A stretch of DNA of 64,000 nt from a candidate division WS1 bacterium (GCA_012522765.1 JAAYJW010000312.1:2753-66752), one strand, 5' to 3'. Shown: positions 26,085-64,000, counted from the stretch's first letter. Numbers and translations: made by a program. The notes: generated from the sequence alone by a model not told the origin.

Positions 26085-26156
26085 GGATTCGGAGGGTATA
26101 TGTGAGCCGGGCCCGGGGTGGCGCAAGCGATGCCTCTGAGGGCCGGCTCTGCTGCT

Positions 26157-27992
26157 ATGGTAAAGGTAACATTCAAGCCCGGTGGCGAGAGCGGCGAGAC
26201 AGAGGCAGGCACCACGATTCTGGCTGCGGCAGCAAGCCTTGGAGTGACGATCACCGCTCCCTGTGGCGGGCGTGGCCGCTGCGGCAAGTGCCGCGTGATT
26301 GCGGAGAAAGGGTGCGCACCGCCTACGCCCTCGGAGCGCGATCAGTTGACGGGCGAGGAGCTTCGGCATGGCATCCGCCTCGCCTGCGAAGCCGTCCTGC
26401 TGGAGGACGCGCAGGTGATCATCCCGTCGGATTCGCGCACCATCAGCGGCAAGATTCTCGCCGATGATGCCCGCGAAGAGATCTCACTTCGCCCCAACGT
26501 CTCGCGTCGGACGGTGGTTCTCCCGGCCCCCAGCCTGTCCGATCAGCGTAGCGACTTCGAGCGGGTGGCGGATGGTCTCGGCACTCCCGCACAGAGTCTG
26601 AGGATGCATCGCGAGGCTCTTGCCGAGCTTCCGTCGGTGCTGCGAGACAATGACTTCAAGGTTGACGTCATCACCGTCGGCGACACCATCGCCGGAGTTC
26701 GCCCGCCGAATGCTCGCCCCTGCTGCCTCGGCGCGGCGGTGGACATCGGCACCACCACTGTGGTCGTCTATCTCGTGGACCTCTCCAGCGGCGAGCGGCT
26801 TGCGACTGCTTCGGCGCTGAATCCGCAGGCCCGCTGGGGCCATGACCTGATCTCGCGCATCGAGCACGTGCAGAGCACCCCGGCCGGGCTTGAGGATCTG
26901 CGCCGGAGCATCGTGGATCTGATCAACCGTCTGCTCGGTGAGACCACCGAGCAGGCCGGGGTCCGCAGGCGGGACATATACGAAGTCTCGATCGTCGGCA
27001 ACACCTGCATGCACCACATGTTCCTCGGCCTCGACCCGCGACATCTCGCGCACGCGCCCTACATTCCGGTTACGCGCGAGCCGCTGGAGCTTTCGGCTGA
27101 AGAGGCGGGTCTTGCGCTCAGCCCGGCGGCGAACGTATACTGCCTGCCGGTGATCGCGGGCTTCGTGGGCGCCGATACAGTCGGCGTGTTGCTCGTGTCA
27201 AGGCTGACCGAGCGCGATCATCCGACGCTGGCCATCGACATCGGCACCAACGGCGAAGTCATGCTCTGGTCGGGCGAGCGGCTGCTGGTGGCCTCCTGCG
27301 CTGCAGGTCCGGCCTTCGAAGGCGGCGAGATCCGGCATGGTGTGCGTGCTGCCGACGGGGCCATTGAGCGCGTCTGGCTCAGCAATGGAAGCATCGGCTA
27401 TGCGACGATCGGTTCCACGCGCCCCAACGGCATCTGCGGATCTGGGATCTTCGACACCGTTGCCACGCTGCTTGACAGCGGGGTTGCCGACAGCACCGGC
27501 CGGCTGGCCGATGAACAGGCCGCTGAGAAGCTGCAGCGGGGGCTGGTGGAGCGGCTGCGTGGCGAGGGCCCCCAGCGCGAGTTTGTCCTGGTGGAGAGCG
27601 CCGAGAGCGCCAACGGCGACATCGTCTTCACGCAGAAAGATCTGCGGGAAGTTCAGTTGGCGAAAGGTGCTGTGCGTGCCGCGGTGGAATTACTCTGTTC
27701 GGCGGCGGGGATAGAGGCCAATGATATCGCCGAGGTATTACTGGCGGGGGCCTTCGGCAACTACATTGACCGCCGCAGTGCGCTGCGGATGGGGCTGCTG
27801 CCGGAGGTAGGCGTGGAGCAGATCAGAGGCGTGGGCAATGCGGCCGGAGCGGGCGCGCTGGCCGCGCTGGTGTCCGTAGACGAGCGACAGCGGGCGGCGG
27901 AGCTGGCGCGGCAGGCGGAGCACATTGAGTTGATGGCCAGTCCCGCGTTCCAGATGGTCTTTGCCGACAGCATGATCTTTCCTGAGTCCTGA
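26157..27992 (+). CDS. RACo-like corrinoid reductive activation protein ([2Fe-2S] ferredoxin + ASKHA/DUF4445 ATPase)
   Basis: MVKVTFKPGGE...CGGRGRCGKCRV...LAC ferredoxin domain, then a DIGTTTVVVYLVD ASKHA N-terminal motif. The track ORF starts at 26118. Confidence 0.75.
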   Translation: MVKVTFKPGGESGETEAGTTILAAAASLGVTITAPCGGRGRCGKCRVIAEKGCAPPTPSERDQLTGEELRHGIRLACEAVLLEDAQVIIPSDSRTISGKILADDAREEISLRPNVSRRTVVLPAPSLSDQRSDFERVADGLGTPAQSLRMHREALAELPSVLRDNDFKVDVITVGDTIAGVRPPNARPCCLGAAVDIGTTTVVVYLVDLSSGERLATASALNPQARWGHDLISRIEHVQSTPAGLEDLRRSIVDLINRLLGETTEQAGVRRRDIYEVSIVGNTCMHHMFLGLDPRHLAHAPYIPVTREPLELSAEEAGLALSPAANVYCLPVIAGFVGADTVGVLLVSRLTERDHPTLAIDIGTNGEVMLWSGERLLVASCAAGPAFEGGEIRHGVRAADGAIERVWLSNGSIGYATIGSTRPNGICGSGIFDTVATLLDSGVADSTGRLADEQAAEKLQRGLVERLRGEGPQREFVLVESAESANGDIVFTQKDLREVQLAKGAVRAAVELLCSAAGIEANDIAEVLLAGAFGNYIDRRSALRMGLLPEVGVEQIRGVGNAAGAGALAALVSVDERQRAAELARQAEHIELMASPAFQMVFADSMIFPES

Positions 27993-54939: not shown

Positions 54940-56562
54940 ATGCTCAAGTTGGCTGTCGGCCGCAACATGTCTGTTCTCGTGTTCATCATCATGGCGCACG
55001 CTGCTCTACCTGTCGCGGCACAGGGGCCTGACGCCGCCCAGCAGGGGCTTGAGATGATGGCCTCGATGATGCCGGTCTCACCGTGGAGCTTCTACCCGGA
55101 CGACCAGGTGCTGGCGGACTTCTCCGGGACCGTCACGATCTCCTTCGGCGCCTCAGGCAACATGGCGCTGCCGAAAGACAACGACGGTGGGGAGACAAAG
55201 TGCAGCGCCGACCTCTCCGCCAGCCTGGTATACACCACCATGAACGGCCATGAGCAGACGAGCACCACGGCCGCGGGACGGATCATCGAGACGTACTTCC
55301 GGCGGGCTGAGGGCGTGGATGCGCCCGGCCACATGTATGAGCCCCCGCGGCGCGAGCGCCACGTCACGCGATACACGGGGCCTTCAGATAACACTCCGAT
55401 CCACATCGTCAACCTGCACTTCAGCCGCAGCATGAAGCTGGCGTCCTTTCAGATGCAGATCGGGCAGGTGGATGTCGGCCGCAGTCAGATCAGCCACCTC
55501 ACGCTGATGCGCGACAGCAAGATCAACGAAGATCCTCCCGATCGCTCGCAACTGGACGACATCGCGCTCTTCTTCAGCCTCCCGCCGCATGGGACCTCGG
55601 GCTCGCGCTGGGCGCAGCTAATGCGCGGCCGGCCCTCGGCGATGCCGTGGGCCGGCCCGTTCTACTACGAGTCGTCCAGCGCCAACGGCGCGACTTCGGG
55701 CAGCGCGACCTTCAAGGCCTTCTTCCATGGCGGCATGTGGGCGACACGCGAGCAGTGGGAGACTATGGGGCAGGACCCGGGCGAGGAGCCGATCTGGCCC
55801 GACGACATCTTCTGGCCGGGCAAGATGACAGTACGCTGGAGCTTCGTGACGAAGAGCGATCCGGGCGAGATGACCATCGCGCCTGAAACGCCCACGCTTT
55901 ACGAGCAGTGGATCCCCGCTCCCATGCCGGGCGACGATGACGTGACGGTCGCGCCACTCGTGCAGGGCGGGCAGACGGCTCAGCCGCCCGCAGTCGCGCC
56001 ACTCGTGCGGCCGGATGAGAACGCGGTCCCGACCATCTTCGGCCCCGCAGGTCCGCTGTACGTCACCGCGCGCATCAAGCCGCGGCAGGGACAGAACGAC
56101 CCGCCGAAGGGGCGCATCCACTTCCACCTGAGCGACGTGACGCGAAATCCGGGGACCTGCAACGACCTCGGCGAGGAGACCGATCCGGACCTCTACTTCG
56201 TGGAGATGCCCGGCGTGACAGTCTCCGGCGACGGTCAGCACGCCTACACTGAGAATTACGTGGGTGAATTGACGGTCGGCGTGGCCGCGCGCGATACCGG
56301 CGCATGGGGCGTGGTGCAGGCGAGTTGCGATGACCTCGGGCTGCTCGCGCGCGACGAGCGGACTGGGCGTCACGGGCTGGTCATCCCGCTGGATGACAAT
56401 CAGAACCGGACGTCAGATGCGTGGGATCGCGAGTTCGGCATCCGCGACAGCCTCTCGACGGATGATGAGGACAACGATGGCTGGACGCTCTACGAGGAGT
56501 ACCGCGGCTTCTGGACGGACACGGGCTTCATTCGGACGAATCCGCGGGTGGCGGATCGGTAG
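54940..56562 (+). CDS. Secreted hypothetical protein with an acidic D-rich C-terminal calcium-binding-like motif
   Basis: Signal peptide. No recognisable catalytic motifs. C-terminal DDEDNDGWTLYEEY. Confidence 0.45.
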   Translation: MLKLAVGRNMSVLVFIIMAHAALPVAAQGPDAAQQGLEMMASMMPVSPWSFYPDDQVLADFSGTVTISFGASGNMALPKDNDGGETKCSADLSASLVYTTMNGHEQTSTTAAGRIIETYFRRAEGVDAPGHMYEPPRRERHVTRYTGPSDNTPIHIVNLHFSRSMKLASFQMQIGQVDVGRSQISHLTLMRDSKINEDPPDRSQLDDIALFFSLPPHGTSGSRWAQLMRGRPSAMPWAGPFYYESSSANGATSGSATFKAFFHGGMWATREQWETMGQDPGEEPIWPDDIFWPGKMTVRWSFVTKSDPGEMTIAPETPTLYEQWIPAPMPGDDDVTVAPLVQGGQTAQPPAVAPLVRPDENAVPTIFGPAGPLYVTARIKPRQGQNDPPKGRIHFHLSDVTRNPGTCNDLGEETDPDLYFVEMPGVTVSGDGQHAYTENYVGELTVGVAARDTGAWGVVQASCDDLGLLARDERTGRHGLVIPLDDNQNRTSDAWDREFGIRDSLSTDDEDNDGWTLYEEYRGFWTDTGFIRTNPRVADR

Positions 56563-56896: not shown

Positions 56897-59800
56897 CTAC
56901 AGCGCGTTGTGCGTGATGCGCAGGTCGCGCAGGCGACCCTCGAACCAGTTGCCGGTCCAGCCCTCACCGATGATCGTGTAGGAGATGTTGTTCGCCGGCA
57001 GCGTGACTTCGAACGACTCAGTCGCTCCGTTGACGCCGAGCGTCATCTGACCGAAGTCGTGGCGCACGGTGATCGTGGACCACGCGCCGGCGGGCACCTC
57101 AAGCCCGCTCTCGTAGCTCTGGCTGGTCCAGGCGTTCGTGACGTAGTTCGCCACCAGCTTGCCGTCCCTGATCTGCAGGCCCAGACCCTTCTGCGACTTC
57201 GTGACCCGCCCGACCAGCAGGAACTGGTCGCCGGCGGTCTCAGGCTTCACCGCGAAGCTCAGCGTGTAGCTTCCACGCCGCGGGAGGCTCTCGCGCGGCA
57301 GTTCGAGGTAGGTGCCGACGCCATCGAACTCCAGCGCCGGTCGCCCATCCTCCTCAACCCACTCAGGCGCTGAATGTGTGGCTGCCTCAGGGTAGTTGCC
57401 CCGACCGCCCCGCCAGAGGCCGTTCGGTGAGCCGCGCCCGGTAGTGGTGCTGGTGTAGCCGCCCAGCACCGCCCAGAAGGGGACCTCATCGCCACTGAGC
57501 AGCACCGCGCCGCGCTCCGGCTCGAACTCATACTCCATCACCGGGATACGCGAGGCTGCCACCTGAACGTCCACCCCGCGCCCCTCCGTCTCCGAGTAGA
57601 TGCGCAGCGGCACCTTGTTCGTGTCATCCACGTTCGGCAACAGCAGCGGGCGCGAGCGGAACTGCCTGCCTTCGGCGGTGGTTACGCGCAGGTGATACTG
57701 CTCCGTGTTGATCTCCGGCCAGATCGGCACCGAGAACGAGACTTCGCGGTCGGTGAGGTGCTGCGGCATATCAACCTGTCGGCGATACGGTTGCACACTG
57801 ATGTGCAGCGGCCCCTCGAAGTCATAGCCGACGATCTTCTTCTCCAACACGTCGCTGAGGGGGACAGAGAAGCTGCCGGTGTCGAAGTCCCACTCGAGGA
57901 CAGCCTCAGCGAGAGCATCTCGTGGCACCGCGAAGTAGATCCAGCGCACCGCCTCTGAGGCGTCGGCAAGCAACTCCAAACGCTGCGCCCCCGGCGCATC
58001 GGCCTCAACCGCAACCGGCGGTGGGCCGGATGAGAGCCACATCGGAGACGCAGCGTTCGCCAGCGTAATCGTTCCCTGCATCGGGATCGTCTTCAGCGAG
58101 CGGTACTCGATCAGGAAGCGCTCGTAACTCGGATCGTCGCGGAGGAACTCCTCGTTGGCGTCCACGGCGTATGCCTCGTCGTCATCACCGAGCAGTTCGA
58201 CCAGCCCCAGTGCCTCCGGGGCCGAAACGGTGCCTGTCAGTGTGAGCGAACCATCCCCGGCGACGCCCGGCTGCCATGCAAGCTCCGCCTGAGCTGCCGG
58301 CAGCAGGTCACGCAGCGGCTGCCGAACCGTCAGGTAGTCCCAGTTCCATGTGGCGCGCAGGTTGATGTGATGGAAACCGCCGTCGAAGGTGATGTCGCGG
58401 CCCTGGTAGCCCGTAACCGTCAGCACCGGGACGAGCGCCCGGGCATCAGCAAGCGTCTCGCTCGGGATCGTCAGGCGCTCCTCCTGCAGCTTCGTGCTGT
58501 CGAAGGTCACAGTCTCAAACTCCCGCACGACTCGGCCCGCCTCATCCTGCAGCGTCAACTGGACCTGATACTGCCCGGCGTCAGTTCCGTCCGGCACATT
58601 AAGCAGTTCGGCAATCAGCACTTCGCCCAGCGTCAGGATCTTGCGCGTGCTGAGGATCAGATTTGGGATGCTGGTATCATCACCCGGCCACGGCGTGGGC
58701 TCCTCGCCCTTGATCTGACTCATGTAGTAGCGCAGGATCCGCCCGGTGGTGTTGGCGCCGTAAACCGTGGGGCGGAAGCTCGTGTTTTCGTTCTGCTCGT
58801 CCCATTCGGGCAGGATGATGACATCCGGACGCGCGTCCATCGCGGCCTCAAAAGATGATCGCAGCGTCCGCGTGTAGTCTTCGAAGAGGTTGTTGCCGCG
58901 GTCGGGAGACATGTGCGAGCGGTAGGCGCTCAGGCCAAGGTACTTGTTGCGATACTCCGGCTCCGCCAGAACGCTTTTGAAGACCGGGATGAAGACTTCG
59001 CGGTAGAACTCGGCGTCGAATGTGTGGTCCTTCTTGCGCAACGCCGGCGGGTAGTTGAAGTAGATACCATCGCAAACATCGAGGTACTCCCGCAGATAGG
59101 CCTTCTCCTTCTCTACCGCGGCGCGAGAAAGCGGCTCGCCTGCCATCAGAGGACCGCGCAGCCCGACGACGTTCGTCAGCGAGGGCAGGAAGACGAAGGT
59201 GTCGCCCACCCGCGCCCGCAGTTCGTCGAGGACCTCTTTCCACTGTGCAGGGGTGAAGCTCTGCGCTCCGTAGCTGGTGATGAGCAGCTTGCCATCAATG
59301 CGCGGCGCGAAGTCGGTCTGCAGGGCGCGCTGGAGGATCTCCGTCTTCTGCGCGAGATGCTCCGGAGTGTAAGCGGTCAGGAACTCCGGCAGCAGCCCCA
59401 CTCCGGGCACGTCGAACTCCTCATGCAGGTCCATCATCGCCAGCCGGCCTTTGGTCTCGGGGAAGAACGCCAGGCCGTCTATGCCGTACTTGACCACCTG
59501 TTGCAATGTGCGCTGATAGCTCGGCGGCGGCGTGGGGTAGTCGGTCTCCATGCGGTAGTCGCGGTTCGCCAGCAGCGGGCGGTCGTTCCACTGGTGGTAG
59601 TAGTTCCTCTGCAGGCCGTACTTCATCTGGCTGCGTGAGAACACCACCGGGCGCGGCGTGAGCGGCTCTCGCGATTCGGCCTGAGCGTGAAGTTCAGCCA
59701 TCAACTTCTCATGGTCGGCCCACGCTTCAGCCGGTGTCATGGGAGGTTCGGGCGTTCCGAGCGCGGTAAGCTCGAGCGCGCCAAACTGCAGTTCGCCATT

Positions 59801-60286
59801 GAGTGCCACCAGCACAATCGAACCGCTCAGGAACGTAGTCTCCTGGCGCGTGACAAAGCTCAGTTCGCGCTCGATCCATGCGCTATCTGGATCGGGCTTG
59901 ATTTCACGGATCGTGACGGATTCCTTGGCGTACGGCTGGACCGGCCGGGCACCCTCGGCCTCATGCTCGCGCAGCATCAGGTAGATGTTCGCCGGCTCCT
60001 GCAGCCCGACTGGCCGCACCTGGTAGCGCACGCGGTAGGCGCAGTTGGGCTCGATCGGAATCCAACCGAGATCGAGTGTCGAGGCGGCCTCGAGTCCCTC
60101 AGCCGAGATCGAGACTGCCGTGCCATCGGGTAGTAACTCTGCGCCTACGCCCTCTGTCTCCGGCAGGCCCAACTGCTCGGGCTGGACGGTCAGCGGCGGT
60201 GGGACGTCCTGCTGCGCAGATGCGCCGCAGATGCAGATGATGAGTGCAACTATCGACAGATAGATCGGCTTGAGCATGAGCTTCAT
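56897..60286 (-). CDS. Large secreted protein with a central glycoside-hydrolase-like region and a C-terminal LamG/concanavalin-A-like lectin domain
   Basis: Signal peptide. C-terminal GSYTLSFAVKP...LGLQIRDGKL...TITVRHDF...LGVNG, typical of LamG. Family of the central domain not assigned. Confidence 0.5.
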   Translation of the reverse strand: MKLMLKPIYLSIVALIICICGASAQQDVPPPLTVQPEQLGLPETEGVGAELLPDGTAVSISAEGLEAASTLDLGWIPIEPNCAYRVRYQVRPVGLQEPANIYLMLREHEAEGARPVQPYAKESVTIREIKPDPDSAWIERELSFVTRQETTFLSGSIVLVALNGELQFGALELTALGTPEPPMTPAEAWADHEKLMAELHAQAESREPLTPRPVVFSRSQMKYGLQRNYYHQWNDRPLLANRDYRMETDYPTPPPSYQRTLQQVVKYGIDGLAFFPETKGRLAMMDLHEEFDVPGVGLLPEFLTAYTPEHLAQKTEILQRALQTDFAPRIDGKLLITSYGAQSFTPAQWKEVLDELRARVGDTFVFLPSLTNVVGLRGPLMAGEPLSRAAVEKEKAYLREYLDVCDGIYFNYPPALRKKDHTFDAEFYREVFIPVFKSVLAEPEYRNKYLGLSAYRSHMSPDRGNNLFEDYTRTLRSSFEAAMDARPDVIILPEWDEQNENTSFRPTVYGANTTGRILRYYMSQIKGEEPTPWPGDDTSIPNLILSTRKILTLGEVLIAELLNVPDGTDAGQYQVQLTLQDEAGRVVREFETVTFDSTKLQEERLTIPSETLADARALVPVLTVTGYQGRDITFDGGFHHINLRATWNWDYLTVRQPLRDLLPAAQAELAWQPGVAGDGSLTLTGTVSAPEALGLVELLGDDDEAYAVDANEEFLRDDPSYERFLIEYRSLKTIPMQGTITLANAASPMWLSSGPPPVAVEADAPGAQRLELLADASEAVRWIYFAVPRDALAEAVLEWDFDTGSFSVPLSDVLEKKIVGYDFEGPLHISVQPYRRQVDMPQHLTDREVSFSVPIWPEINTEQYHLRVTTAEGRQFRSRPLLLPNVDDTNKVPLRIYSETEGRGVDVQVAASRIPVMEYEFEPERGAVLLSGDEVPFWAVLGGYTSTTTGRGSPNGLWRGGRGNYPEAATHSAPEWVEEDGRPALEFDGVGTYLELPRESLPRRGSYTLSFAVKPETAGDQFLLVGRVTKSQKGLGLQIRDGKLVANYVTNAWTSQSYESGLEVPAGAWSTITVRHDFGQMTLGVNGATESFEVTLPANNISYTIIGEGWTGNWFEGRLRDLRITHNAL

Positions 60287-60432
60287 GTTTCGCGTATCTC
60301 CTTCGGACCGGGGTATTATCCTCGACGTGCCCGGCGGGGGGCCTGTTCATTAGGGAGCGCCTCGCACGTACAGTATACCACGGGCCGCGGGGCGGGGTGA
60401 ATAGCCCAGCGCGTGCGTGCGGTACAACACCA

Positions 60433-60457
60433 GGCGCAGGCTAGTGTAGCCTGCGCC
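60433..60457 (-). terminator. Hairpin downstream of the radical SAM gene
   Basis: GGCGCAGGCTA-gtg-TAGCCTGCGCC, an 11-bp perfect stem followed on the minus strand by UGGUGUUGU. Confidence 0.4.
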
Positions 60458-60498
60458 GTGGAAGCACTCGTACGAAGGGAGGAGGCAAGCGCGTCCTA

Positions 60499-61431
60499 TC
60501 ACTGCGCCCGTTTGAAGAACGTCTGGCCCTCCCGATCCTCTCGGTCAAGCTTTCCCTCCGCGATCAGGTGCGTGAGATACTTGATCGCCTCGTTCGGGTG
60601 CATGCCAAGGCCGTGCGAGACGTCCTCAATCGTGCATGGGCGATAGCTCACCAGCGCGAGCACCTCCTCCTCGGAATGTGCCGCGCCCTCGGGAACGTCA
60701 TGTTCCCACGCCGAGGAGATCACGGTGGCACTAGGGCCGAAGATAACCCTCGCGCGCACCAGCGTCCCGTTGTCAACCCGCTTCACATCGGTGCCCGGCG
60801 CCGGCCGCACTACTGTATTGATCTGCACCTGGTCCGGGGCGATGCCGCGGATCACGCGTGCCAGCGCCTCAAGTTGCTCGTTACTATCGTTGACGCCCTC
60901 TACAAGCATGACCTCAAGCCACATCTCGCCATGGAACTCCAGCGCGGTCTCCTCCAGGCCCTCGATGACCTGCTGTAGAGCGAGGCCTTTCACCGGGTGG
61001 TTGATGCGCTCGAAGACCTCCTCAGTGGCGGCGTCGAGCGAGGGCATGATGAGGTCGGCCTGCATAGCCGCATCGCGCGCACCTTTACGCCACAGCAGAG
61101 CGCCGTTGGTGAGCAGGCAGATCGGGATATTCGTCAGTTGCCGCGCGCGCGCCATCGCGTCGCCGAGGTCTATGTTCAGTGTCGGCTCACCGCAGCCGGC
61201 AAAGGTGAGATAGTCGGCCTCCCCGCCGGCCTCCAGCCACGCCTCAAGCTCGCGCAGCACCTCGTCAACGTCCACGTATGCCTTGCGCTCGGCGGTATGA
61301 ACCGTAGTCGGCCCAAGCTGGCAGTAGATACAGTCGAAGCAGCAGGTCTTCATCGGCACCATGTCAACGCCCAGCGACCTACCCAGCCGCCGCGATGGTA
61401 CCGGCCCGTAGAGATGCTTGTACTGAGCCAT
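60499..61431 (-). CDS. Radical SAM protein (COG0731/Tyw1-like family) with C-terminal winged-helix domain
   Basis: GPVPSRRLGRSLGVD...CCFDCIYC cluster motif. C-terminal wHTH-like region. Confidence 0.75.
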   Translation of the reverse strand: MAQYKHLYGPVPSRRLGRSLGVDMVPMKTCCFDCIYCQLGPTTVHTAERKAYVDVDEVLRELEAWLEAGGEADYLTFAGCGEPTLNIDLGDAMARARQLTNIPICLLTNGALLWRKGARDAAMQADLIMPSLDAATEEVFERINHPVKGLALQQVIEGLEETALEFHGEMWLEVMLVEGVNDSNEQLEALARVIRGIAPDQVQINTVVRPAPGTDVKRVDNGTLVRARVIFGPSATVISSAWEHDVPEGAAHSEEEVLALVSYRPCTIEDVSHGLGMHPNEAIKYLTHLIAEGKLDREDREGQTFFKRAQ

Positions 61432-61436
61432 TCATC

Positions 61437-62267
61437 TCACCCGTTCTCGCGTATGCGCTCCATAAGGGCGTCCACGATCTCGTTCCAGGCCTGCCGGACC
61501 GCCTCGGGTGCCTCGTCGCTCGTCAGTGGCTTGCCCTCGTCACTCAGCGCCACGATCTCCGCCGCCAGTGGCACTCGGCCGAGGAACGGCACGTTCATCT
61601 GCCGCGCCATCGCCTCACCGCCGCCGGTGGAGAAGACCTCCGTGCGCTCCCCGCAGTGGGGGCAGACGAAGCCGGACATGTTCTCCACCACGCCCAGCAC
61701 CCTCAGGTTGACCTTATGCGCGAAGTTGATGGCCTTACGGCAGTCGGCCAGCGAGGCCTCCTGCGGCGTGGTGACGATGATTGCGCCATCGGCCTGCGGG
61801 AGCGACTGCGCGAGCGTCAGGGGCTCATCGCCGGTGCCGGGAGGGAGGTCCACCACGAGGAAATCGCGCTGTCCCCACTCCACGTCGCCGAGAAACTGCC
61901 GCAGCACTCCGCCGCGGAGTGGTCCGCGCCAGATAGTAGGCTGATCGCGCTCGGCAGTGAGGAAGCCGATGGACATGACCGCGAGGTTCGGCGCCGCCTC
62001 GACCGGCTGCAGCGCCTCCGGAGTGCCGGACGCCATCTCGCCTGTTACGCCCATCATCAGCGGAATCGTCGGCCCGTGCAGGTCCGCGTCCATCAGTCCC
62101 ACGCGATTCCCGCGCTCAGCCAGCGCCGAAGCGAGGTTGGCGGCGACGGTGCTCTTCCCGACGCCTCCCTTGCCGCTGAGCACGAGTATAACGTGCCCGA
62201 CCTCGCCCATCCTGTCCGCGATCTTCTGCGTCTGCTGCTCATACTGCTGCACCTGATCGTTCATCAT
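61437..62267 (-). CDS. Mrp/NBP35/ApbC family Fe-S cluster carrier ATPase
   Basis: LSGKGGVGKST Walker A. CPHCG motif. Confidence 0.9.
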   Translation of the reverse strand: MMNDQVQQYEQQTQKIADRMGEVGHVILVLSGKGGVGKSTVAANLASALAERGNRVGLMDADLHGPTIPLMMGVTGEMASGTPEALQPVEAAPNLAVMSIGFLTAERDQPTIWRGPLRGGVLRQFLGDVEWGQRDFLVVDLPPGTGDEPLTLAQSLPQADGAIIVTTPQEASLADCRKAINFAHKVNLRVLGVVENMSGFVCPHCGERTEVFSTGGGEAMARQMNVPFLGRVPLAAEIVALSDEGKPLTSDEAPEAVRQAWNEIVDALMERIRENG

Positions 62268-62464
62268 GCGACGACGGTCCTTTCATGCGTCACTGCACCG
62301 TGTTACGGACACTCCTGTCAAGCTTAAGAGGAGGGTTTGGGCCACCCCAACGAATGAAACAGGTTCCCAAGTAAAGCGGGCGCTCTCCTCATAGCCAGAC
62401 AACCGAACCAACGCCACGAGAAAGCCAGATTCTCAGGTAGAGCGGGCGCGGCGCCACCGCGCCG

Positions 62465-63340
62465 TCAGATCCCCGCGATCATCTCCGCGGTTCGCTCCCA
62501 TGCCGCTCGCATCGCCTGTGCCGCCGGCCCGTCGTTGTGCTCGACGAGAGGCTTCTTTGCCGCGAGGGCGTCGGTTACCTGCGGGTCCCACGGTATCTCC
62601 CCGAGAATCGGCAGGCTCCTCATGTTGCACCACGTTCGCAGGTGCTGGGTGTTCGCCTGATTGATGTCGAACTTGTTGATAATCACCGCGGAGGTCAGGC
62701 CGAAGTGATCGATGAGCTGGATCTGCCGCTCCATGTCGTGGATACCCGAGAGCGACGGTTCGGTAACCACTACGGCCAGGTTCGTGTCAGTGAGGGCAGC
62801 GGTAGTAGTGCAGCCGAGGCCGGGCGGGCCGTCAATGATGATCAGCGGCAGATCGTGCTGATAAGCCAGGTCCTCGGCTTTCTGCCGCACCAGCGTGACA
62901 AGGCGGCCTGAGCTCTCCGCTGCCGGCAGCAGCCGCGCGTGAGCCATCGGCCCGTATGCGCTTGTGCCGGTGTACCACGTACCAACCACTACCGGCTCCA
63001 GCTTCAGCGCATTCACGGGACAGACAACCACACAGAGGCCGCAGCCCTCGCAGGCAAGCTCATCCACCTCATCCACGGTGATGGCGTGGAAGCGGCAGCG
63101 TTCTTCGCAGGCGCCGCAGCGGGTACATTTGTCTTCATCGCGCACCGCCACTTTTGCGCCGGTGAACTCCCCGCTGTCGGTGTCTTCCGGATGCATCAGC
63201 AGATACAGATTTGATGCGTCAACATCGCAGTCGGCGATGACCTTGTCGTGTCCCAACGCAGCGAAGGAGGCCACAGTGGTCGTCTTGCCCGTGCCGCCCT
63301 TGCCGCTGACGATCGTTATTTGCTTGAGGTCTGGCATCAT
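62465..63340 (-). CDS. MinD/ParA-superfamily P-loop ATPase with inserted 2x[4Fe-4S] ferredoxin domain
   Basis: SGKGGTGKTT Walker A, CTRCGACEERC...CEGCGLCVVVCP. ATG at 63340 with RBS GGGAG. The track ORF extends to 63592. Confidence 0.8.
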   Translation of the reverse strand: MMPDLKQITIVSGKGGTGKTTTVASFAALGHDKVIADCDVDASNLYLLMHPEDTDSGEFTGAKVAVRDEDKCTRCGACEERCRFHAITVDEVDELACEGCGLCVVVCPVNALKLEPVVVGTWYTGTSAYGPMAHARLLPAAESSGRLVTLVRQKAEDLAYQHDLPLIIIDGPPGLGCTTTAALTDTNLAVVVTEPSLSGIHDMERQIQLIDHFGLTSAVIINKFDINQANTQHLRTWCNMRSLPILGEIPWDPQVTDALAAKKPLVEHNDGPAAQAMRAAWERTAEMIAGI

Positions 63341-63560
63341 GAATGCTCCCGGCGCGTCAGTTCGGATCATTTGAAGTGACGTAGTAAGAAAGTGTCCGCG
63401 TACTGTGTCCGGGCGAGGCGCTCGGGCTGCGCACCGGATTGCGCCCCGCCGGCCAAAAGCCCGGACGCCAGGCGGCCCTCGCCTGGAGAAGCGACATGCA
63501 ACGTCTGCACTTGCGCAAATTCTACTTTCGTCCGATAATGCCCCTGAGCCGCATGGCTCG

Positions 63561-63649
63561 CCTGAGGCAGAGCGGTGGTGGCCGACCACCATCAGAGAGG
63601 GAAACGTAGCTCGGCTACGTCCCGGCAGCCGGCCACCACCAGTCTCAGG
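63561..63649. other. Nested multi-hairpin element abutting the DUF5320 stop codon (candidate structured 3'UTR/leader RNA)
   Basis: Outer stem CCTGAG...CTCAGG encloses GGTGGTGG...CCACCACC, TGGTGG-ccga-CCACCA and ACGTAGC-tcg-GCTACGT. Confidence 0.2.
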
Positions 63650-63949
63650 CTACCACCAACGTCCGCGGCCCATGCCGCGCCCGAAGCCGCCACCGCGGCC
63701 CCAGGCCATCCCGCCGCCGCAGGGGCCCCTGCCCCAGCCGAAGCGTGGATAGGCGCCGGGCATCATGCCGTAGCCCATCCCCCAGCCTCCGCCGTAGCCG
63801 GCGTAAGGGTAGCCATAGCCCATCCCGTAGGGGCGAGCGCCATAGCTCCCGTAGCCGCCGTAGCTTGCCCCGTAGGGGCTGCAGAAGCCACGGCCGCCGC
63901 CGGTCATCGGGCCCATTCCGGCAGGTCCTGTTCCATCCATTCCTGGCAT
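63650..63949 (-). CDS. DUF5320 family small Gly/Tyr-rich protein
   Basis: MPGMDGTGPAGMGPMTGGGRGFC... then GYG repeats. Strong RBS AGGAGGTG. Confidence 0.65.
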   Translation of the reverse strand: MPGMDGTGPAGMGPMTGGGRGFCSPYGASYGGYGSYGARPYGMGYGYPYAGYGGGWGMGYGMMPGAYPRFGWGRGPCGGGMAWGRGGGFGRGMGRGRWW

Positions 63950-64000
63950 TTGGATCACACCTCCTGTATGCCGAATATGATGCGTCATCGCTTGCTCACT

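Follow-up and report, generated by a model that had tools for sequence, protein, structure and literature searches.

A radical SAM/winged-helix gene in a variant ORP/IssA-type gene cluster of a candidate division WS1 bacterium

We analysed a 64,000-nucleotide stretch of DNA from a candidate division WS1 bacterium (GCA_012522765.1 JAAYJW010000312.1:2753-66752), referred to below as the window, in which an initial annotation had described four co-directional genes as an uncharacterised iron-sulfur (Fe-S) gene cluster: a radical S-adenosylmethionine (SAM) enzyme, an Mrp-type Fe-S carrier ATPase, a MinD-ferredoxin ATPase and a DUF5320 peptide. All four open reading frames (ORFs) were present in the ORF list of the window, on the minus strand, and the domain calls were correct. 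The four genes are not a self-contained cluster but the distal 3' part of a larger, eleven-gene cluster of the ORP ('orange protein')/IssA type, a kind of cluster used by anaerobes for iron-sulfur cluster handling. What is new here is that an uncharacterised radical SAM family is a regular, and sometimes fused, partner of the ORP/IssA-type system; in the searchable literature we found no paper on a radical SAM/winged helix-turn-helix (wHTH) partner in the ORP or IssA context, nor on this gene association, and a Bacteroidetes iron-stimulon study offered nothing of relevance. We favour, with about even confidence, an Fe-S (metal-sulfide) storage and transfer system in which the radical SAM enzyme works alongside a NifX-like carrier. 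This picture builds on the observed gene content, homology, conservation, fusions and RNA hairpins, from which we infer each functional step. Our confidence is much higher for the homology to the ORP cluster than for this overall functional picture, and much lower for any particular radical SAM chemistry.

Co-conservation and natural fusions of the radical SAM gene

In a pattern scan covering one genome per species the radical SAM enzyme had at least 568 relatives, and we analysed the best 80 loci (38-72% identity), which were annotated with phmmer probes from this cluster and whose unannotated neighbours were clustered without bias. A gene for a MinD-ferredoxin ATPase, a NifX-like protein or Mrp was found within 6 kb of the radical SAM gene in 35 of the 80 loci (25 of the 41 with at least 5 kb on both sides), and within 3 kb and on the same strand in 33 (23 of the 41 with full flanks). 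The partner genes lay almost only on the strand of the radical SAM gene (same versus opposite strand: MinD-ferredoxin, 25 versus 1; NifX, 29 versus 3; Mrp, 19 versus 0; metallo-beta-lactamase-fold (MBL) protein, 16 versus 0). Therefore the grouping of these genes is far beyond chance. The linked loci span about ten bacterial phyla plus the archaeal Methanocellales, and come from Armatimonadota, Planctomycetota (Phycisphaerae, Planctomycetales, Pirellulales), Ignavibacteria, Spirochaetales, Lentisphaeraceae, Smithella and other Desulfobacterota, Acidobacteriota, Bacteroidota and a Rhodospirillales metagenome-assembled genome (MAG). In a neighbour-joining tree of 81 enzymes they were scattered over nearly every clade. 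The radical SAM gene stood between two MinD-ferredoxin genes at nine loci, its cluster contained full-length MrpORP equivalogs above the model's cutoff at two (L025, 451 bits; L037, 521 bits), and two look-ups anchored on MinD-ferredoxin homologues again placed it at the 3' end of a PadR-headed cluster. The initial annotation had proposed a neighbourhood comparison as its own check and had placed the association mostly in anaerobes; the genes are co-conserved across phyla, and the link to anaerobes held. Recurrent neighbours included FmdB-type zinc ribbons (15 loci), a third, divergent NifX-like class (14), DUF134 (12), DUF89/ARMT1 (9), TrmO_N (8), OrpR-like PAS-sigma-54 activators (7), CGGC-domain proteins (6), SAM methyltransferases (6) and further DUF5320-type peptides. 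DUF134, which had been expected nearby, does occur in those 12 of the 80 related loci, but PadR stands in its place in the cluster described here.

The same neighbourhoods bear on a different reading, in which the enzyme would be a housekeeping modifier of RNA or small molecules (COG0731, TYW1-like) that merely tends towards co-regulation with anaerobic Fe-S genes. The gene is part of a housekeeping block running from kdsA to xerC in 11-12 Pirellulales/Sedimentisphaerales genomes, TrmO_N and SAM-methyltransferase genes recur nearby, one family member is fused to a methyltransferase, and RlmN and TYW1 are among the structural matches. We nevertheless consider such a loose association very unlikely, as the TYW1 model gave 26.5 bits against a cutoff of 318, two independent NifX-like fusions exist, the gene is embedded between two MinD-ferredoxin genes at the nine loci mentioned, and the linkage recurs in nearly every clade of the family tree.

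The fusions tie the enzyme to the cluster carriers within single polypeptides. In P0244 (447 aa; L089 1783-3126), confirmed as a single gene on its contig, a Nitro_FeMo-Co domain precedes the radical SAM-wHTH part. P0284 (440 aa; L090 483-1805) is a separate N-terminal fusion to the divergent NifX-like class, with 39% identity to a free-standing neighbour (E 6e-28), and Nitro_FeMo-Co and NifU_N genes lie downstream of it. These two natural fusions are independent of each other. In P0251, a third long protein of the family, a class I SAM methyltransferase follows at the C-terminus.

The initial annotation had read the module differently, with Mrp and the MinD-ferredoxin ATPase forming a dedicated Fe-S insertion or repair line that matures a radical SAM client with an unrelated job. 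Mrp-type proteins are indeed Fe-S carriers, the radical SAM gene starts 5 nt past the Mrp stop codon, the order Mrp then radical SAM recurs in L007, L009, L014 and L025, and a NifX fusion could equally mean a cluster donor attached to its client. The fusions, however, would be no less expected of an enzyme that works with a cluster carrier than of a client, and Mrp was found within 3 kb of the radical SAM gene in only 16 of the 80 loci. The demonstrated targets of MrpORP are the MinD-ferredoxin proteins Orp3 and Orp4 themselves (PMC6345978), and the orp operons of Desulfovibrio vulgaris Hildenborough function without a radical SAM gene (PMC8359166). A single client would also need far less than an eleven-gene set that includes a CDF transporter, three NifX proteins and storage-type peptides. 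Thus, we found no specific support for the maturation of a particular radical SAM client, and we regard this reading as unlikely.

The radical SAM family itself is large (1,877 representatives at 50% identity, E <= 1e-30), and it is covered by no curated model in NCBIfam and by no solved structure in a PDB sequence search; a PDB search with the family profile returned generic matches only (E about 1e-5). In the NCBIfam comparison the radical SAM, MinD-ferredoxin and DUF5320 proteins each scored below the cutoff of every model. Invariant in the family are the N-terminal GPVPSRRLGxSLG beta hairpin, CX3CX2C, GxGEPTL, PSLDA, NTVVRP and the RPC(T) motif that opens the putative winged helix. The sole conserved cysteine beyond the SAM cluster is C266 (89% of the 81 sequences), and therefore there is no sign of an auxiliary cluster; no SPASM/twitch auxiliary-cluster cysteine motif was found in the same 81 sequences. 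The C-terminal winged helix that the initial annotation had placed on a COG0731-type enzyme is supported by an AlphaFold model (predicted local distance difference test (pLDDT) score 84.9), in which helices 254-263, 268-274 and 279-291 are followed by a beta hairpin at 295-308, and by HTH Pfam matches, weak on the C-terminal fragment of this protein and stronger in homologues; COG0731 is the name given by JGI to the homologues. The predicted domain resembles the DNA-binding families ArsR, TrmB, IclR and MarR and not PqqD-type elements. Foldseek matched the model to small partial-barrel enzymes, with pyruvate formate-lyase (PFL) activase best (E 8.5e-12), then NifB (~1e-10), RlmN, TYW1 and viperin; the likeness extended to the generic small radical SAM core only, and no subfamily could be assigned. 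Membership of two named families was rejected: TYW1/Taw1, for which TIGR03972 gave 26.5 bits against a cutoff of 317.95 and a second [4Fe-4S] motif was absent, and NifB, for which the likeness is structural only (E ~1e-10, template modelling (TM) score 0.54-0.75) and the auxiliary K-cluster ligands are not conserved.

Proteins of the eleven-gene cluster

A 344-kb contig with the same genes runs past the window end and carries eleven co-directional genes over ~8.4 kb, of which the four in the window are the last (Table 1). The identical radical SAM protein was found by exact-sequence look-up on seven anaerobic-digester or biogas metagenome contigs, the 344-kb contig among them, and the closest named homologues are from Armatimonadota MAGs.

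Table 1. Features of the cluster in the window and in locus L001 (positions without a prefix are those of the window)
Feature	Position	Strand	Details
Four-gene stretch	60499-63949	minus	order DUF5320, MinD-ferredoxin ATPase, Mrp, radical SAM
Radical SAM enzyme, 310 aa	60499-61431	minus	PF04055 E 2.9e-15
Codons of C30-x3-C34-x2-C37, radical SAM [4Fe-4S] ligands	61321-61344	minus	100% conserved, 81 sequences
Codons of predicted C-terminal wHTH, residues 254-308	60508-60672	minus	includes R264-P265-C266-T267 motif; AlphaFold and wHTH Pfam matches
Mrp/NBP35/ApbC-type Fe-S carrier ATPase, 276 aa	61437-62267	minus	PF10609 (NUBPL/Mrp) E 7e-97
MinD-superfamily P-loop ATPase with inserted 2x[4Fe-4S] ferredoxin, 291 aa (Orp3/Orp4-like, COG1149 type)	62465-63340	minus	Pfam CbiA, ParA, 2x Fer4
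DUF5320 peptide, 99 aa	63650-63949	minus	PF17253 30.2 bits (gathering score 27), read from ATG at 63949
GC-rich stem-loop, 16-nt arms, directly after DUF5320 stop	63569-63645	minus	inverted repeat I2; dG -58.6 kcal/mol, z = -6.0
Spacer MinD-ferredoxin/Mrp, 197 nt	62268-62464	minus	no Rfam match, sigma-70-like promoter or convincing sigma-54 site
Perfect 11-bp hairpin, 3-nt loop, then UGGUGUUGU (U-rich)	60433-60457	minus	inverted repeat I3; z = -4.1; 45 nt past radical SAM stop
Cluster gene 1, PadR			heads cluster
Cluster gene 2, 117-aa Nitro_FeMo-Co (NifX-like) protein	L001 2961-3314		PF02579 E 7.5e-18
Cluster gene 3, CDF transporter fused to cytoplasmic Nitro_FeMo-Co domain	L001 3304-4578		best specific models MntE, FieF, MamM/MamB, all below cutoff
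Cluster gene 4, COG1237-type MBL protein
Cluster gene 5, 265-aa Nitro_FeMo-Co protein (NifX265)	L001 5476-6273		160-aa Gly/Met/Gln-rich tail ending in coiled coil, IssA-like
Cluster gene 6, first MinD-ferredoxin ATPase	L001 6284-7180
Cluster gene 7, 74-aa GDGTGP zinc-ribbon protein	L001 7209-7433
Cluster genes 8-11, DUF5320, second MinD-ferredoxin ATPase, Mrp, radical SAM	63949-60499

The Mrp protein carries a GKGGVGKS Walker A motif and a CPHC motif, and its closest solved structure is CFD1 (6g2g, E 5e-69). Its best NCBIfam match was MrpORP, with 355 bits over model positions 2-251 of 365, and on this alignment the window protein corresponds to the P-loop half of MrpORP. The 117-aa NifX-like protein covers positions 261-364, the Di-Nase part of MrpORP (73 bits); both halves of MrpORP are therefore present, but split. 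The CDF-Nitro_FeMo-Co fusion has an unusual architecture that ties metal transport to a cluster-carrier domain, and the best models of its CDF part are of the Mn/Fe type.

The MinD-ferredoxin ATPase has the [4Fe-4S] motifs CTRCGACEERC and CEGCGLCVVVCP. Its mechanically called ORF of 375 aa was over-extended, since public gene calls (start MMPDLKQ) and a ribosome-binding site (RBS) put the start at 63340. It is the second of two paralogues in the cluster; the other, the second copy that the initial annotation had suggested looking for, lies 0.9 kb past the window end. A structure search found no solved structure with the MinD-ferredoxin architecture, and the best 120 homologue matches were all close relatives (at least 54% identity).

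The relationship to MinD raises the question of whether these ATPases position the septum or a polar structure, with regulatory Fe-S parts, as has been proposed for the Desulfovibrio ORP complex. They do belong to the MinD/ParA superfamily, the orp genes have been called 'putatively involved in cell division', and MrpORP has a polar localisation (PMC6345978, PMC3897727). However, a Min system was rejected, as the initial annotation had also concluded: with 68 bits the protein falls far short of the 212.9-bit cutoff of the MinD equivalog TIGR01968 and contains a ferredoxin insertion, and gene calling within 10 kb yielded neither MinC nor MinE. Moreover, every conserved neighbour binds metal or a cluster (NifX, Mrp, CDF, NifU_N, CGGC) and no division genes recurred in the 80 loci. 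A role in cell division is thus extremely unlikely in our view.

The DUF5320 peptide, whose gene was also called in public contigs, matches positions 1-58 of PF17253 only, so that the C-terminal coiled-coil part of the model is missing. It has an N-terminal MPGMDGTGPAGMGPMTGGGRGFC motif, which agrees with the GDGTGP...GRGxGxC pattern, and continues into a cationic tail rich in Gly, Tyr, Trp, Arg and Met (composition of the peptide: G 39%, Y 11%, M 10%, R 8%, W 5%; pI 9.8). The Gly/Tyr-rich character and the strong RBS that had been reported for it were both borne out (AGGAGG, 8 nt upstream of the start). On the plus strand at 61394, opposite codons 9-15 of the radical SAM gene, another frame of the reverse-complemented GPVPSRR coding sequence reads ...RRDGTGP, which contains the pentapeptide of the DUF5320 N-terminal motif. 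This antisense reading recurs in many related loci and is most likely a coincidence of Gly/Pro codon complementarity.

Other small proteins of this kind accompany the cluster. A protein of ~75 aa (cluster gene 7, ending at window position 63999) starts with MPRGDGTGP, continues with a Gly/Arg run and ends in a CxCPxCG...CPxCG zinc ribbon; it has no Pfam family and was also seen beside MinD-ferredoxin genes in L007, L019, L025, L032, L033, L074, L087 and L088. Elsewhere, FmdB-type zinc ribbons with a C-terminal CCGxxxxCxxPxC tail (FmdB-CCG) were the commonest immediate upstream neighbour of the radical SAM gene (9 loci), including loci in which no ORP genes were detected (L018, L055, L080). Examples are L031 8925-9161, L045 9729-9989, L055 4910-5221, L067 9741-9974 and L079 9753-9995. 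Such an FmdB-CCG protein might act as a substrate, or as a partner that binds a cluster.

In a further reading, the radical SAM enzyme would be a modifier of the adjacent Gly/Cys-rich small proteins (DUF5320, the GDGTGP zinc ribbon, elsewhere FmdB-CCG), with the winged helix recognising the peptide and the ATPases and carriers supplying clusters and electrons. Besides the FmdB-CCG neighbours, small Gly/Cys-rich peptide genes occur within 3 kb of the radical SAM gene in 22 of the 80 loci, the best structural match, PFL activase, acts on a glycine in a protein loop, and a small partial barrel may suit macromolecular substrates. On the other hand, the SPASM/twitch auxiliary-cluster motif is absent from the enzyme, its wHTH is like those of DNA-binding families and not of the PqqD type, many radical SAM loci are without any such peptide, and DUF5320 is present, too, in ORP-type settings for which no radical SAM enzyme has been described. 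In addition, an FmdB-CCG gene was sought in the window and in L001 and none was found. Peptide modification as the function of the enzyme therefore appears improbable.

Transcription signals and genomic surroundings

The GC-rich stem-loop that follows the DUF5320 stop codon has counterparts at the same position in three of four relatives (L007 5291-5370, L087 9883-9915, L088 9904-9975; the fourth, in L009, is weak, z -1.0). The sequences of these hairpins are unrelated between loci, and their shared position suggests conserved intra-operon attenuation or transcript stabilisation. The gaps at 62268-62464 (197 nt) and 63341-63649 (310 nt) are unusually long, relatives having ~20-150 nt at these junctions, and no promoter, Rfam family or called gene accounts for them. 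Specifically, Rfam gave no match in the whole window at gathering scores or in 60200-64000 at E <= 1, and a sigma-70/terminator consensus scan found no coding-strand promoter in the two large gaps and no canonical T-run terminator. The sigma-54 pattern TGGCAC-N5-TTGC had 63 matches compared to 72 expected from shuffles, none of them well placed. The hairpin past the radical SAM gene is the likely end of the transcription unit, because the hairpin and a promoter-like site at 60401-60372 precede the next gene, which encodes a 1,129-aa LamG protein.

The remaining window is that of an ordinary anaerobe chromosome (PriA, RACo corrinoid activase, YfhO-type membrane proteins, glycoside hydrolases). 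The RACo-type reductive activator of corrinoid proteins, with Fer2 and RACo domains, is encoded at 26118-27992 (plus strand) and fits an anaerobe with a corrinoid-dependent C1 metabolism. Two genes are kept beside the cluster in all long contigs: that of the 1,129-aa protein at 56897-60286 (minus strand), whose sole recognisable domain is a C-terminal Laminin_G_3, and that of a 540-aa protein at 54940-56562 (plus strand), which has no Pfam match. At the other end, in two related Armatimonadota contigs (L001 1-2296, L087 901-5096), the PadR-headed cluster is preceded by divergently oriented McrB-like AAA_5 restriction genes, joined by McrC in L087. In L088 (113-3969), the genes just upstream of the ORP-type cluster form an AmmeMemoRadiSam-like set: a Memo-AMMECR1 fusion, a DUF362 protein and another radical SAM protein, of 388 aa.

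Proposed mechanism and comparison with known systems

In the reading that we favour, the operon, taken to belong to an anaerobic member of the Armatimonadota, would serve the ATP-driven storage, holding and hand-over of inorganic iron-sulfur (metal-sulfide) clusters under strongly reducing conditions. The NifX-like (Nitro_FeMo-Co) proteins would hold the inorganic cluster or polymer, and the CDF-NifX fusion would couple this holding to metal transport. The cationic DUF5320 peptide may act in trans like the C-terminal tail of IssA, neutralising and wrapping anionic Fe-S species, and the hairpin behind its gene may allow its production to exceed that of the downstream enzymes. By analogy with the Desulfovibrio homologues, for which this was shown (PMC6345978), an Mrp dimer with a [4Fe-4S] cluster bridging its CXXC motifs would load both MinD-ferredoxin ATPases. 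This pair would in turn couple ATP hydrolysis to electron or cluster transfer, with a NifH-like logic. Finally, the radical SAM/winged-helix enzyme, laid out like NifB, would belong integrally with the NifX-like carrier and may perform SAM-dependent radical chemistry on the carrier-bound cluster or on its ligand.

A bolder version, which we think rather unlikely in full, would make the radical SAM-wHTH enzyme the missing catalytic part of a widespread, anaerobe-specific machine for Fe-S mineral storage and mobilisation. Here, NifX-like scaffolds and cationic Gly/aromatic peptides (DUF5320, GDGTGP zinc ribbons, FmdB-CCG tails) would template a thioferrate-like polymer, MinD-ferredoxin and Mrp would load and unload it, and the NifX-docked enzyme would carry out a new radical reaction on the cluster or the peptides. 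If this were true, the ORP complex would gain a defined biochemical function. If, conversely, the links are only regulatory, the cluster is an ordinary member of a known and still enigmatic family of gene clusters.

Several observations weigh against the storage and transfer reading. The orp operons of D. vulgaris Hildenborough have been described without a radical SAM gene, so that the enzyme is not universal to the system (PMC8359166), and the label that the literature gives to the ORP complex is 'putatively involved in cell division' (PMC6345978, PMC3897727). The radical SAM gene lies away from ORP genes in a Pirellulales/Sedimentisphaerales clade and in a Bacteroidales clade, and across the 81 sequences the enzyme lacks conserved auxiliary-cluster cysteines, unlike NifB. 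PadR stands here instead of the sigma-54 activator OrpR, and no sigma-54 signal was found by the pattern search of the window. The IssA-like NifX265 is acidic overall (pI 4.4; tail pI 4.7) and not cationic. Lastly, the 310-nt and 197-nt gaps together with the strong hairpin separate the four genes, and the co-transcription of all four is a candidate only.

Among known systems, MinCDE shares with the window ATPase only the MinD/ParA-superfamily P-loop fold. The resemblance to TYW1/Taw1 consists of the radical SAM core, the COG0731 name on homologues and the presence of TYW1 among the structural matches, but the family described here has a C-terminal winged helix, lacks a second cluster motif and is present in bacteria, which to our knowledge are without wyosine. 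The Mrp protein resembles Mrp, ApbC, NBP35 and Cfd1 in its deviant Walker A motif, its CXXC and its strong similarity to the solved Cfd1 and Mrp structures. It differs from ApbC in that it scored 232 bits against a cutoff of 348, lacks an N-terminal DUF59/MIP18-type extension and scores higher with the MrpORP model.

NifB combines a radical SAM domain with a NifX-like domain and works with NifX/NafY carriers in the assembly of the nitrogenase cofactor. Likewise, the radical SAM enzyme here is joined to a NifX-like domain, genomically and, in P0244 and P0284, physically, an Fe-S P-loop ATPase accompanies it as NifH does, and NifB is among its top structural matches. In contrast to NifB, however, it has no K1/K2 auxiliary-cluster ligands, its fusions carry the NifX-like domain at the N-terminus, it has a winged helix, and the sequence similarity is generic only. 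Without the K-cluster ligands the enzyme parallels NifB in logic only and is no member of its family. No nitrogenase genes were found in the window or in L001.

IssA of Pyrococcus furiosus is a Nitro_FeMo-Co/IPR003731 protein that stores thioferrate and rebuilds [4Fe-4S] ferredoxin; its Gly/aromatic/Arg tail (pI 10.7) has been proposed to wrap anionic thioferrate, and its authors noted a mesophilic 'IssX' clade with Gly-rich tails (PMC5524996). In pyrite-grown Methanococcus voltae, IssA-clade proteins and neighbouring radical SAM proteins go up (PMC9431491). NifX265 likewise joins a Nitro_FeMo-Co domain to a long, Gly-rich disordered tail, and DUF5320 matches the Gly/aromatic/Arg, high-pI character of the IssA tail. 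While IssA carries its cationic tail itself, the cationic tail is here a separate gene product, DUF5320, and the tail of NifX265 is Gly/Met/Gln-rich and acidic; moreover, neither MinD-ferredoxin ATPases nor a radical SAM enzyme have been described alongside IssA. These likenesses suggest a testable role for DUF5320 as an IssA-tail-like peptide in trans.

The orp gene cluster was reportedly characterised in 2011, and the radical SAM link gives a concrete and testable enzymatic handle on a system that has been without a settled function for more than ten years. In D. vulgaris Hildenborough the ORP complex and orp operons comprise Orp3/4/5/7/8/9, the last being MrpORP (PMC6345978, PMC8359166, PMC3897727). 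Orp3 and Orp4 are two MinD-like proteins with two [4Fe-4S] ferredoxin motifs each, which occur with Orp5 and the Nitro_FeMo-Co 'orange protein' Orp8 (PMC6345978), and expression of the orp operons is confined to about -425 mV and is switched on by the Fe-S sensing activator OrpR (PMC8359166). In vitro, Orp3/Orp4 receive the Fe-S cluster of MrpORP, which also co-purifies with the ORP complex and localises to a pole (PMC6345978). The cluster described here also has a paralogous MinD-ferredoxin pair, an Mrp/NBP35 carrier with MrpORP as its best model and a single-domain Nitro_FeMo-Co protein of the Orp8 type, and it too is found in anaerobes. The initial annotation's 'function unknown' thus needs qualifying, because the cluster is a recognisable relative of the partly characterised ORP system and of IssA, with transfer from Mrp to MinD-ferredoxin shown in vitro for Desulfovibrio (PMC6345978).

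The differences from ORP are nonetheless clear. Mrp and NifX are split to opposite ends of the cluster, and the window Mrp scores 355 bits where the MrpORP model NF041136 has a cutoff of 450. There is one co-directional array, compared to two divergent operons in Desulfovibrio. The extra genes encode the radical SAM-wHTH enzyme, the COG1237-type MBL, the CDF-NifX fusion, the GDGTGP zinc ribbon and the IssA-like long-tailed NifX. Iron and sulfide storage and traffic in strict anaerobes are poorly understood, and the cluster links two literatures that are usually kept apart, that on ORP in sulfate reducers and that on IssA in Thermococcales and methanogens. The features that set it apart as a variant of the known ORP and IssA systems are the split MrpORP, the control by PadR, the CDF-NifX fusion, the free IssA-tail-like peptides and the conserved radical SAM-wHTH partner.

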